Shown here: piece after piece, positions 708 through 55,750 of the stretch | Numbering within the stretch: the stretch's first letter is position 1 | How the letters are laid out: each line of letters opens with the position of its first letter | Source: Candidatus Bathyarchaeota archaeon | GTDB taxonomy: Archaea; Thermoproteota; Bathyarchaeia; Bathyarchaeales; Bathycorpusculaceae | DNA: 64,000 nucleotides | NCBI GenBank assembly: GCA_963768425.1 | Contig: CAVYHV010000030.1 | Location: 1 to 64,000, forward strand | Direction of reading: 5' to 3' | The notes under the pieces: generated by a model | What the model saw: only the letters and a program-made list of their open reading frames with translations | The model's database searches: none | What the model was told of the DNA's origin: nothing | Program-made: the position numbers and the translations under genes

Positions 708-1592
708 TTGACCAAAGAAACAGTTCTGATTATAGGTTTAGGCGAAATTGGGCATACTCTTTTCGTTTTGCTGAACGAACAGAAAAAAGACTTTAGCGTT
801 TACGGCTTAGATTTAGATGAAGTAAAAATGTGTCAGCTTGGTCAAAGTAGAAAAAACCTTCCAAGCCAGGTTGATACTGTACACGTTTGCTTGCCCTACG
901 GATCACAGAAAAAATTCTTGAATGCTGTTGAAGGCTACATTGAAGAATTCAAGCCCAAGCTTGTTATTGTCAACAGCACAGTTCCTCCTGGAACCACCCT
1001 AAAGATTGCGACAAAATGTAATTGCACAGTTGCTCATTCCCCATCGCGCGGGGTGCACAAAAATGCTGAGCATATGGTTTGGGAAATGAAGCGTTGGACC
1101 AAATATGTCGGCGGCGCTGATGCGACCGCTGCGGAGCTTGCCAAAGCCCATTTTGAAAAACTCGGCTTAAAAGTGAAGGTTCTCAAAAGCTGCAAAGAAA
1201 CGGAGCTCGCGAAGCTTTTCGAGACAACTTATCGTGCGTGGATGATTGCTTGTTTCCAAGAAATGCATCGGATTTCCAAAGCTTTCGGCGCCGACTTTAA
1301 CGAAACAGTCGATTTCCTTGAAGATACCCACCGTGTACGGTTCGACAGGCCCGTGATGTTTCCAGGTGTGATTGGCGGACACTGCCTAATCCCAAACACT
1401 GAACTGTTGATGGATGCCTATGACTCGGATTTTCTGCGGTTGATTTTGAAGTCGAACGAAAGGCGCAAAGAAGAAGTTAAGGATGAGAATATTAAAGCGG
1501 AAGTAGCGAAGGTTGCTGAGAGAGCTGTGGCGTTGGAGAAGGAGATTGCGGGCGAAAAGAACGAGATCACAGAACCAAACCAGTGCGGCTAA
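708..1592 (+). CDS. UDP-glucose/GDP-mannose dehydrogenase family protein (short form lacking the C-terminal domain)
   Basis: IIGLGEIG Rossmann motif, STVPPGTT, ELAKLFET, IGGHCL with catalytic Cys. Confidence 0.85.
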   Translation: MTKETVLIIGLGEIGHTLFVLLNEQKKDFSVYGLDLDEVKMCQLGQSRKNLPSQVDTVHVCLPYGSQKKFLNAVEGYIEEFKPKLVIVNSTVPPGTTLKIATKCNCTVAHSPSRGVHKNAEHMVWEMKRWTKYVGGADATAAELAKAHFEKLGLKVKVLKSCKETELAKLFETTYRAWMIACFQEMHRISKAFGADFNETVDFLEDTHRVRFDRPVMFPGVIGGHCLIPNTELLMDAYDSDFLRLILKSNERRKEEVKDENIKAEVAKVAERAVALEKEIAGEKNEITEPNQCG

Positions 1593-1715
1593 AGCCCTTT
1601 GCGGATGCTTTACTGCCTACATTTGGCGTTTGAAAATGATTTTTCATCAGCCGCTTTTTTCTGGCAGGATCGATCTTTGAATATGATAACATTAATACCA
1701 AAAGAGATACAATAA

Positions 1716-49426: not shown

Positions 49427-50125
49427 TTATAGTTGGATTAACGCGTTCACCAGCGCTACTATCCCAAGCAGAATCAGCACAGCCGCGCCCCCGATTGAGA
49501 TCCATTTACGCAACAACGGCGCTTTGTTAAGAAGCCAACCTGTAACGCCGCCCAACAGAAGCATCGGGGACAAAGCGGTTCCTAACCCGAACAAGAAAGC
49601 TAAAGCAACGCTTCCAAGCGGAGTTGAAAAAGGCAGGGAGTAAAGCAGAAGCGCCATCAAAGGCGGACAGATGATTAGTCCTCTGCCCAAGCCCAAAGTG
49701 AATGCTTTGAAGTCAAAGCCGAATCTGCCATTTTTCGCTGGCGTAGCCACGTTTTTGTCACTGGGCGCGTTGAACTCGCATGGGCTTCTTGACTTGATGA
49801 CGATGGTTATGCCGATTGCCATAGTCAAGATACCGAAGGCTATTGCGGAGTAAGTTTGGAAAGGGGAAATGGCTGAGTTGGAGACAAACAGCCTGAGCAA
49901 TCCACTGAACAAACCGACTACGCTCCCGATAAGGGTATAAGCCAATACTCGTCCACTGTTAAAAATCATTGTTATTGTTATGCTTTTGCGGAAACCAGTG
50001 CCGACGCCTGCGATGTAACTTGCTATGTAAGGGAGGCATGAGGCAGTGCAAACAGCTAACCCGTAAAGTAATCCGCCTGCAAACGCCGCCAGAAACGGGT
50101 TGGAAACTTCGGGTATCAACGACAT
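49427..50125 (-). CDS. DsbD_2 / TauE-like membrane protein
   Basis: CTASCLP, FNSGRVLAY, GLIICPPL, FGLGT. Confidence 0.8.
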   Translation of the reverse strand: MSLIPEVSNPFLAAFAGGLLYGLAVCTASCLPYIASYIAGVGTGFRKSITITMIFNSGRVLAYTLIGSVVGLFSGLLRLFVSNSAISPFQTYSAIAFGILTMAIGITIVIKSRSPCEFNAPSDKNVATPAKNGRFGFDFKAFTLGLGRGLIICPPLMALLLYSLPFSTPLGSVALAFLFGLGTALSPMLLLGGVTGWLLNKAPLLRKWISIGGAAVLILLGIVALVNALIQL

Positions 50126-50487
50126 GGGAATGCTCAGCAAGTTTTGATGAAGCAAATAATGGGGGGAGCGTTTTTAAAGCTTACATAAAATTGCTGCCGC
50201 CATGAAACGTTCACCAATTTGCAATATCGGGGTGCCGGGGGTTTGGAAACATGACGGTGCAGGTACCGTTGTTTTTTGTGGTTTTGCAAAGAAATTGCGT
50301 TCTTCATGTCAAATTGCGTAGTTCATGTGAAAAGACAATTAGTTCACCGTTAAGAATGGTTAAAGCGCCTTTCGAAGGCTCAGGAGATTTAGATAAAAAA
50401 GTACGTTTTTACACGCTCACGCAAAGAGCTTATTGCCATAAGAAAGTTAAAAACATGTTTTATAGACCTTAGGCTTATTACAACCTT

Positions 50488-50714
50488 GCAGGTTGAGAAG
50501 CACGCTTTAAATGCAAACGCATTGAAGCAAAGAGTGCGTCAATAAAAACAGCGGAAAATTGACGGGCACCAAAGACTTTGCTTTAATGGGCTGGACGTAG
50601 CTATGTAGCAGGGAAGCTATGAGCGGCGTGGTCAAAACGGTGAAAGACCATGAAGCGACAAAGACATGGCTTCAATGGGCCGCGTAACATCTTTAAGGCT
50701 TAGACTCAACCTGC
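50488..50714 (+). ncRNA. Candidate structured ncRNA (~227 nt), family unknown
   Basis: TTTTATA 24 nt upstream, perfect 10-bp terminal helix, 13-bp internal helix, several further stems, T-rich tract downstream, no ORF. Confidence 0.65.
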
Positions 50715-50789
50715 TTAACTTTTATTCAAACAAAAATTTAATTTTCCATTACCCACTCTTTGGTTTCGCTTCCGGAACACCTGAAGCAG

Positions 50790-50999
50790 TCAGATTCTGT
50801 TGAAGTACTCTAAAGGCGCATACCAGAAAACTGTAATTGTCTTTTGACACTCGGGGTTTTTGCATTTAACCTTGATTTTCACGACATTTCCGTGGAAACT
50901 GCTTCGTATAGGTTTTACTTCTGAAAACGCTGTGTGAAATTTATCTGGCGGTTCAATTTCAAAGGGTTTGTAACAAAAGGGGCATTCAAGAACAGCCAT
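50790..50999 (-). CDS. Small Zn-ribbon protein
   Basis: CPFC..CKNPEC; GAGGGTGA SD-like sequence upstream. Confidence 0.75.
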   Translation of the reverse strand: MAVLECPFCYKPFEIEPPDKFHTAFSEVKPIRSSFHGNVVKIKVKCKNPECQKTITVFWYAPLEYFNRI

Positions 51000-54531: not shown

Positions 54532-55750
54532 TTATTCACTCTTTATTTGACTAACTCTTTCTTCTGGCATTTTCGTGTTCCTGAAGAAGTACCAGAATAG
54601 CCCTATTGAGACCAGGTAGAATAGCGCCGCCAAAAAGAACGGGGCTGCTAGAAGTGACATGCCTATAAGCCAGGCGCCAACGAATGAACTTAAAGCGTTC
54701 GGCAATCTCCAGAGGGCGGCGCTTATGCCTGAAGCTGCTCCACGTTCATCTTCGGGGACCAACCCCATTATCATCGACTGCGCCAAGGGGCTTGACATGT
54801 TCATTAGAAATGCTCTCGAGGTGTAAACGAAGCTGGCGATGATGTAGTTTGGGGACAGGGGTGTCGCGAACATGAATACTGTTGAAATGGCTTCTGTAAC
54901 AACTATGGCGTTGACAACTCCAAACCTTTTTGCGAGTGTAGGAGCAGCGAGCGTGGATACTCCTACTACGATGCTTGAGACGCCCAGAATTGGACCGCTT
55001 AATGAGTCAGGTATGCCGTACTGTGCTTTCATCCAAGCCGTCATCAGGGGAATAATCATGCCTGCGCCCACAGCGATGATGGCGCCTGTTATGACGTATT
55101 TTGCCAAAACGTTTTTTGATTTTCTAGGGAGCAGTTGACTTAAGGTTGCTTTTGCTTTGCTGAGTTCTTGGTTCCGTGACTTTCAACATAATTAATGTTG
55201 AAGATAGGCTCAACGCTGCAAGAACAACGTAGAGAAGAATATGGCTTTCTTTGTTAGAGAACCCGGCCATTGTTGAAGTCGCCAAGATTGCAGCGGCGCC
55301 AACGCCGAAAGCAGTGCTGTTGGCGAAGCCGAACATTGAGAACACGCTGTTTCTCTTTGTGTCGTCGGCTTTTGCTGCAAGTAACGCGCTAACAGAAGCT
55401 GATGAGGCTGCTTCTGAAATGCCTTCAAAAACCGCGGCTATAATCAGCAAAGCCGTGTTGGTTGTTAAGGCGAAAACCGCAATGATGAGGCTCGCTATTA
55501 CGTTGCTTAATATGAGAATTCGTCTTCTGCCGTATTTGTCTGCTGCGATTCCCATGGGGATGCTGGTGGCGAAAGTGGATATACCCATAATTGTTACGAT
55601 GAGCCCCATGAGGTAGAAGCTTAATCCCTGAACTGTGGTGAGGAAGTAGGCTATGTCGGTGTAAAACATGCCGTAAGCCACTGAGGGCAGCACCGAGAAA
55701 TAGATTAGGTATTTTGCCTGTGTCGACATTCCTCTGTAAACGCTAAACAC
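54532..55750 (-). CDS. MFS transporter, frameshift near 55130
   Basis: GIAADKYGRR motif A in the N-half; LAKRFG and ERGAASG in the C-half. Confidence 0.88.

Follow-up and report, generated by a model that had tools for sequence, protein, structure and literature searches.

To our knowledge, the circular RNAs that archaea produce through bulge-helix-bulge (BHB) motifs arise in the maturation of tRNA and rRNA, as by-products or intermediates, or belong to the repair of a permuted SRP RNA gene. The locus described here, in a Candidatus Bathyarchaeota genome, has the same hBHBh' architecture as these tRNA introns, pre-16S and pre-23S rRNA intermediates and the permuted SRP RNA of Thermoproteus, with a 4-bp helix and 3-nt bulges. 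It also shares their cut positions and back-joined product, and the genome carries EndA and RtcB genes. Archaeal BHB-dependent circular RNAs are treated in PMC4731332 and PMC7714728, and in the part of PMC12558985 that concerns the archaeal circRNA route, EndA cuts the BHB and RtcB or another ligase then joins the ends. PMC12558985 also mentions the C/D-box RNA in the archaeal tRNA-Trp intron as a stable functional intron. Searches of full article texts yielded no published description of the present RNA or of free-standing BHB circRNA genes in Bathyarchaeia.

Results

The locus and its promoter

The element occupies 50488-50714 on the + strand of the window, by which we mean the whole 64,000-nt stretch of DNA that was analysed. 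It holds no long ORF, and the longest stop-free run in the circle described below is 28 codons. An earlier note, made from the letters of the DNA, had proposed a stand-alone, promoter-driven, highly structured and hitherto undescribed archaeal RNA. That proposal holds, and every string it listed is present where it was placed. The two flanking genes are on the - strand, as the earlier note had said, and encode a DsbD_2 membrane protein (49427-50155) and a 69-aa ORF (50790-50999). Further beyond the 69-aa ORF lies a GDSL lipase gene, and the rpoD-L18e-L13-S9-rpoN operon lies upstream. No mobile-element, Cas or reverse-transcriptase genes were found around the window copy of the RNA gene.

The TATA-like promoter element TTTTATA (50458-50464, +) stands 24 nt upstream of the first paired base of the terminal helix, P1. 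Across the 114 upstream flanks of family loci, A/T accounts for 97-98% of bases at -29 to -27 relative to the P1 start and TATA-like hexamers start mostly at -33 to -28, so that the promoter proposed from a single copy agrees with a family-wide A/T peak and with hexamers at a fixed distance. This spacing places the predicted transcription start at or just before P1. The T-rich tract previously seen after 50714 is found at 50715-50727 (+) and is, judged by sequence, a likely terminator; a run of at least four T occurs within 25 nt downstream at 60 of 115 family loci. The many G-U pairs on the + strand, together with the promoter position, identify + as the RNA strand.

Folding bears out the high degree of structure. 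Against 200 dinucleotide shuffles of 50488-50714, the + strand has a minimum free energy of -77.9 kcal/mol, compared with -56.6 +/- 4.1 for the shuffles (z -5.21, 0/200 as good), and the - strand has a z of -4.29. In gathering mode the whole window gave 0 matches to Rfam 15 (4227 families). In E-value mode, the sole hit for 50300-50900 was Plastid-rpl16 group II-D1, whose 20.9 bits (E 0.36) fall below the gathering score of 43 and which we treat as chance. The element does not match RNase P RNA, SRP RNA or 5S rRNA, in line with the earlier exclusion of all three, and these RNAs are encoded elsewhere in the genome (191.4, 146.5 and 64.4 bits, respectively). A tRNA gene with an intron was also considered and rejected: ARAGORN found no tRNA in the window, and the exon parts consist of 10-nt helix arms and BHB bases only.

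A bulge-helix-bulge motif and a circular RNA

The P1 helix pairs GCAGGTTGAG (50488-50497) with CTCAACCTGC (50705-50714), both on the + strand, and belongs to the precursor only, outside the circle junction. It is followed inwards by a central 4-bp helix, in which AAGC (50498-50501, +) pairs with GCUU (50698-50701, +). Two 3-nt bulges complete the arrangement, ACG (50502-50504, +) on the 5' side and AGA (50702-50704, +) on the 3' side. The earlier note had recognised the terminal helix and its AAGC/GCTT extension, which are present and prove to be parts of this motif. Together, P1, AAGC/GCUU and the two bulges make up a canonical hBHBh' splicing motif. In 72 aligned sequences all 10 pairs of P1 covary, with 96.7% of cells paired, and the central helix is paired in 100% of cells. 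The canonical BHB is found at fixed positions in 110 of 125 distinct family sequences, the rest being mostly 1-nt offsets or truncated matches. P1 varies freely in sequence yet covaries, whereas the cut-site bases are nearly invariant across the 125 sequences, a combination that fits a processing signal.

Assembled RNA contigs from Logan were aligned to 50300-50900, strand and circular:linear ratio being outside the scope of such data. In 4/4 metatranscriptome runs, from four studies, contigs join 50703 back to 50504 with no ambiguous letters at the joint. The joint falls after the second nucleotide of each bulge, that is at 50503/50504 and 50703/50704, with 6 nt between the outer helix and the 5' cut and a single nucleotide between the 3' cut and that helix, a geometry that we take to be that of an archaeal tRNA intron at 37/38. 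The aligned contigs lie within 50504-50703. Two contigs, of 192 nt and 198 nt, are circularly permuted and match the window at about 99% identity, and loose contig ends show the same junction in relatives. A back-joint with no letters shared between the two sites cannot derive from a linear gene, nor from DNA contamination. Since the joint coincides with the predicted BHB cut sites, the mature product is a 200-nt circle, 50504-50703 (+), and in contigs of all four studies the joint goes back 200 nt. The 227-nt RNA proposed earlier is thus a real unit, as the precursor, while the mature form is the 200-nt circle. Similarly, metatranscriptomes do contain the predicted RNA, with bounds at 50504-50703 rather than a start near 50488. 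RNA contig cover is absent from 50300-50488 and 50720-50900, which is no evidence by itself. Wetland and peat metagenomes are candidate DNA carriers of the RNA, an observation that makes no claim about habitat.

Inside the circle, the helix P2 pairs 50504-50510 (+) with 50693-50699 (17-23 with 212-218 in RNAalifold numbering). In short forms of the RNA it extends to 11 pairs, seven of them with double changes. After ligation, P2 is predicted to be capped by the 4-nt loop UUAG (50700-50703), and the resulting junction hairpin, GGC-UUAG-GCU, is nearly invariant in sequence among the 125 family members. The window's genome encodes two EndA-family ORFs of about 199 aa (PF01974, 97.9 and 79.3 bits) and an RtcB (PF01139, 413 bits).

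Pseudoknotted modules

Between the strands of P2 lie two copies of one hairpin module. Module 1 (50520-50593, +) has a lower stem (50520-50532/50576-50588), an upper stem (50534-50544/50557-50567) and an apical loop (50545-50556), in which CAGC (50549-50552) forms a pseudoknot with GCUG (50590-50593). In 72 sequences this pseudoknot is 99.3% paired, with double changes at two of its four pairs, so that covariation confirms the CAGC/GCTG interaction that had been suggested. The 13-bp helix previously described, capped by CGTCAAT/ATTGACG, is the module 1 lower stem. Module 2 (50609-50682, +) repeats the arrangement with a lower stem at 50609-50616/50670-50677, an upper stem at 50623-50633/50646-50656 and a pseudoknot between CGGU (50638-50641) and GCCG (50679-50682), for which the 72 sequences show 99.2% pairing and double changes at each of the four pairs. 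The single-module covariance model R2, introduced below, matches 50488-50624 at 59.7 bits and, separately, 50586-50714 at 60 bits. These matches and the covariation replace the three-way junction formerly drawn in the 3' half by the second module. The strings of the GTGGTC/GACCAT arm are where they were said to be, while the junction that was to carry them is not supported. The strings of the proposed helices GTAGCT/AGCTAT, GCGGC/GCCGC and GAAGC (50652)/GCTTC are likewise present, with pairing that is not conserved. GAAGC at 50614-50618 instead shows conserved pairing with GCTTC at 50670-50674, as part of the module 2 lower stem.

Forms of 133-137 nt, from other families and orders, comprise P1, an internal loop with P2, and one long hairpin (covariance model alignment, 72 members). 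This hairpin has a 13-bp lower stem, an internal loop, an 11-bp upper stem and a 12-nt apical loop, and the four central apical-loop bases pair with four tail bases just 3' of the hairpin. In the 18 short-form sequences pairing of the pseudoknot is 100%, with covariation at two of its pairs. Because the two stems are similar in length and the apical loop finds its partner at the foot of the lower stem, the hairpin must bend sharply at the internal loop. That loop is asymmetric and purine-rich; its 5' strand carries an invariant GA and its 3' strand GACAAAGA. The hallmark of a kink-turn is a 3-nt bulge followed by tandem sheared G.A pairs. The GA dinucleotides of the internal loop have K-turn polarity and are invariant on both strands, and the bulge would be 6 nt rather than 3, a departure from the canonical K-turn, of which the loop may be a variant.

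Each RNA carries one, two or three modules of about 80 nt on the conserved junction hairpin, which gives element lengths of about 133, 227 and 316 nt. The corresponding predicted circles measure 105-110 nt (one module), 192-208 nt (two) and 289 nt (three). The window's genome has a second two-module locus on contig 9 and a three-module, 316-nt locus on contig 6, and a three-module locus similar to the latter was found in another genome.

Distribution and covariation of the family

A DNA search of 61 related genomes gave matches in 22 and two further loci in the window's own genome. Homology is bounded by window positions 50486-50714, the same boundaries as had been drawn from the single copy. 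A covariance model, R1, was built from 16 full-length members and complemented by R2. Within the genus, R1 matches 96 of 120 genomes (64/73 of high quality) with one to four matches per genome, and the element seen earlier as a singleton is therefore one member of a modular family. At the level of the order R1 matches 74/151 genomes, and in the class R1 matches 25/151 and R2 28/151. In a phylum sample R2 matches 8/151, all eight among the 20 genomes of the window's class, and it gave no match in the 131 genomes of other classes. The RNA is not universal in the class, R1 and R2 having no match in many Bathyarchaeia families. An exact-pattern scan of one genome per prokaryotic species found 102 stretches. 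Among the 80 listed, on which these figures rest, 66 are archaeal and all 66 match the model, compared with none of the 14 bacterial stretches. The 66, again among the 80 listed, comprise 62 labelled Candidatus Bathyarchaeota or Bathyarchaeia, three 'uncultured archaeon' and one 'Crenarchaeota archaeon'. Homologues in Bathyarchaeia, which the earlier note had looked to, thus form an RNA family conserved across many members and several orders of the class.

Covariation, the other support then anticipated, is very strong. RNAalifold on 18 natural single-module forms from several orders gives 44 pairs, 36 with compensatory changes. With the pseudoknot included, 95.2% of 876 cells in these 18 sequences are standard pairs; shuffling gives a mean of 80.9%, and slid registers never exceed 43.9%. 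Both sides change at 39 of the 49 pairs, and none of 500 shuffles equals any observed measure. The RNA family is real, conserved and structured.

A protein encoded beside the RNA in other families

At 19 loci, in at least four other families, the RNA gene adjoins divergently a gene for a protein of about 215 aa. The protein has no sequence match in Pfam, NCBIfam or PDB. It is 58-68% identical across families, with D81, E94 and E96 invariant, and its relatives in the ESM Atlas are solely Bathyarchaeota-dominated. An AF2 model (pLDDT 90.9) was compared structurally by VIA-align, in which residues ~49-203 gave Z 9.3 (3dnx), 9.0 (XisH, 2okf), 8.9 (AF1548, 1y88) and 7.2 (NucS, 2vld). Can2 and restriction enzymes are lower-ranked structural matches, tRNA-endonuclease subunits score Z 5.7-5.8, and Foldseek E-values for the model are 1e-3 or weaker. 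These moderate scores indicate that the protein probably adopts a PD-(D/E)XK nuclease-like fold.

Within the class sample of 151 genomes, 28 contain the RNA and 74 the protein. Both are present in 26 of the 28 RNA-positive genomes, and the two exceptions have completeness values of 85% and 68%. In 15 of these 26 the genes stand side by side and diverge; in some of the other 11 they are on separate short contigs and may yet be neighbours. In genomes negative for the model, 19 full-length stretches upstream of the protein gene were also searched. Six contain a divergent BHB that keeps the conserved cut-site bases and has an outer helix of 10 bp, here around a different, rod-like RNA cargo, giving circles of 124-141 nt. 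Two more have a GC-rich BHB variant (105-107 nt), and one further region shows only the 3' motif. An RNA variant of about 150 nt occupies the same position in two more genera of the window's own family. One family has the protein in 27/27 genomes and the RNA in only 1/27; a BHB upstream of the protein gene was found in none of six genomes of that family and in neither of two genomes of another.

The RNA genes of the window's genus lie apart from the protein gene, and the genome's own copy of the protein gene contains an in-frame stop or frameshift. Beside this copy, R1 and R2 with filters off found no RNA, and there is no BHB of the conserved type. Because the RNA genes of the genus have moved away and the protein copy is broken, the link between RNA and protein at the window locus is a lead rather than a finding.

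Discussion

The element is most probably a dedicated gene for a BHB-processed circular RNA, and the biogenesis of the circle is well supported. In the proposed mechanism, a TATA-type promoter would drive a precursor of about 230 nt or slightly more, whose ends would pair as P1 (10 bp) and form the hBHBh' motif with AAGC/GCUU and the two 3-nt bulges. The archaeal splicing endonuclease would cut at 50503/50504 and 50703/50704, past the second bulge nucleotide on each strand, and an RtcB-type ligase would then join the ends into the 200-nt circle. By analogy with known systems, the genome's EndA and RtcB presumably act on this transcript. The circle would consist of the junction hairpin (P2 and UUAG) carrying two tandem modules of about 80 nt, each folded back on itself. 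We infer that the circle and not the exon stub is the product, because all conservation lies in the circle.

What the circle does is approached more tentatively. It may be a nuclease-resistant scaffold in which the repeated modules and the invariant junction hairpin bind protein, a suggestion that we put forward as possible, at rather less than even chances. The candidate partner for such a scaffold is the PD-(D/E)XK-fold protein encoded beside the RNA gene in other Bathyarchaeia families. A more specific and somewhat more speculative proposal is a ribonucleoprotein particular to Bathyarchaeia lineages, in which GGC-UUAG-GCU might serve as a handle for the PD-(D/E)XK-fold protein and the variable cargo might tune its activity. 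The cargo would be one to three pseudoknotted modules here, or other rods in other families. If this were true, archaea would have their first example of a circular RNA produced as an end in itself and working with a nuclease-like partner.

Alternatively, the circle could be a sensor whose pseudoknotted modules are ligand-binding aptamers acting in trans. The highly conserved loop sequences with covarying helices flanking them, the compact pseudoknot-clamped fold and the varying number of modules invite this comparison, which likens the RNA to tandem riboswitch aptamers. However, no downstream gene is there to be controlled, both neighbours being on the other strand, the modules match no aptamer family, and the gene context offers no clue to a ligand. 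We regard a sensor as unlikely.

A small RNA associated with the ribosome or with translation, whether as an rRNA-like component or as a biogenesis factor, is less probable again. All four environmental RNA libraries contain the RNA, one of them with near-identical contigs at k-mer depths in the thousands, and the window copy is near an operon of ribosomal-protein and RNA-polymerase genes. Against this, the RNA has no similarity to rRNA models, the family model is without a match in many Bathyarchaeia families, and the conserved loops show no significant complementarity to the 16S rRNA of the genome. Of six conserved loop and tail motifs compared with 16S by RNAduplex against 200 shuffles (16S only, the assembly being without 23S), five were unremarkable. 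The sixth, the module 1 apical loop, was equalled by 1/200 shuffles, which fails multiple testing, and this loop is engaged in the pseudoknot.

It is very unlikely that the RNA acts in linear form, as a free-standing ncRNA of about 227 nt with a terminal helix closing it, and that the circular joint is a minor by-product or artefact. P1 is indeed a stable 10-bp helix that is included in the covariance model alignments, and contigs cannot give a circular:linear ratio. The contigs nevertheless lie within the circle bounds, every run bridges 50703 to 50504, and the free variation of P1 next to near-invariant cut sites fits processing rather than a finished end. Still more remote is a DNA repeat, such as a miniature inverted-repeat transposable element, in which P1 would be the terminal inverted repeat. 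The one to four model matches per genus genome, at different loci and with 10-bp inverted termini, resemble such an element. This reading is opposed by compensatory changes, G-U pairs included, through all helices and pseudoknots, by a conserved promoter at a fixed distance, by a position beside one gene that is conserved across several orders, and by an RNA-level back-joint at the BHB sites with no transposase gene nearby. The exon halves left by BHB cleavage could also be joined by RtcB, and the resulting short hairpin is scarcely credible as the functional product with the circle as a discarded intron, given that the exon parts vary freely apart from the BHB bases and the 'intron' holds all the conservation and covariation.

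A gene dedicated to a circular RNA therefore remains the preferred reading. If correct, it offers a testable case of a purpose-built prokaryotic circRNA in several orders of an abundant uncultured archaeal class, a naturally occurring scaffold for expressing circular RNAs and a candidate pair of RNA and protein. Set beside known systems, the biogenesis is of a known kind. What is new is the dedication of a gene to making a circle, a modular fold with pseudoknots, and a conserved association with a nuclease-like gene.

In other known archaeal BHB circRNAs the host transcript is tRNA, rRNA or SRP RNA. The host transcript here is none of these, the 'exons' are two helix arms, and the cargo is a modular pseudoknotted fold with no Rfam match. 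Because the exons are only these arms, the free-standing gene appears to use the splicing machinery only for making a stable circular RNA. The C/D RNA of the tRNA-Trp intron is likewise a BHB-excised circle that is itself a structured RNA. Unlike that intron, the present circle has no tRNA around it in the window, and a C/D box sRNA was rejected because neither a C box (RUGAUGA) nor a D box (CUGA) occurs within 50504-50703. Archaeal H/ACA guide RNAs, which have one to three hairpins, resemble the RNA here in its one to three hairpin units with internal loops and in the ACA downstream of some of them. An H/ACA identity was also rejected: the internal loops are conserved in sequence rather than variable guide pockets, the apical loop pairs with the tail, the ACA is not invariant and lies about 10 nt past the stem rather than directly 3' of it, and no Rfam H/ACA model matches. 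Lastly, the RNA is small and base-paired and is seen as permuted contigs, as are viroid-like and rod-shaped circles in metatranscriptomes. Unlike those circles, it is chromosomally encoded, bears a promoter and is syntenic across orders.

Genes adjoining the RNA and other genes of the genome

The RNA is followed, 79 nt downstream, by an ORF of 69 amino acids on the opposite strand (window 50790-50999, -), which has no match in Pfam or NCBIfam. An ORF of similar size is found at equal distance and in the same orientation from the RNA in five close relatives (loci L002, L047, L048, L054 and L057). A different neighbour is seen in one genus of another order, where a single-module RNA gene is followed after 30 nt, at the one locus checked, by a Cas6-family endoribonuclease gene on the opposite strand (L095:1665-2144, -; PF10040, E 5.6e-13).

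The genome assembly from which the window derives (G000) carries its gene for the conserved protein of probable PD-(D/E)XK fold elsewhere, on contig 17 (116932-117547, -; locus L106), with no RNA gene beside it. This copy is interrupted by one in-frame TGA, and the protein match is spread across two frames. The match to the ligase RtcB (contig 8: 125066-126375, -) is broken into two segments that overlap and lie in different frames, covering profile positions 1-303 and 299-426, which suggests a frameshift or assembly error in the RtcB gene. The 16S rRNA gene is located on contig 14 (255365-256855, -); a 23S rRNA gene was not found in the assembly, which is 91% complete. As no LSU match lies beside the 16S gene, the probable explanation is either unlinked rRNA genes or a 23S gene that is missing from the assembly. 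Within the window, adjacent half-length ORFs at 54532-55107 and 55124-55750 (both -) each hit the MFS_1 profile over its first half and may represent a split or duplicated-half transporter gene.

Related RNAs

One genome of the window's genus holds a degenerate copy of the RNA (L224:1501-1626, +; 32.5 bits) that keeps the module, lacks the bases of the bulge-helix-bulge (BHB) motif, and may be a decayed paralogue. BHB-framed, rod-like RNAs occur in other Bathyarchaeia families (L240:248-415, +; L241:670-823, -; L242:126-276, +; L243:136-290, +; L249:614-766, -; L250:609-760, -; L245:272-405, +; L246:251-384, +), with further examples at L222:1506-1656 (-) and L225 ~1500-1665 (+). They lie upstream of the gene for the conserved ~215-aa protein and divergent from it, a position matching that in the window RNA family. 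Their bases at the cut sites and junction are also the conserved ones of the window RNA family and their cargo is unrelated; together these RNAs look like a superfamily set by frame rather than by cargo.
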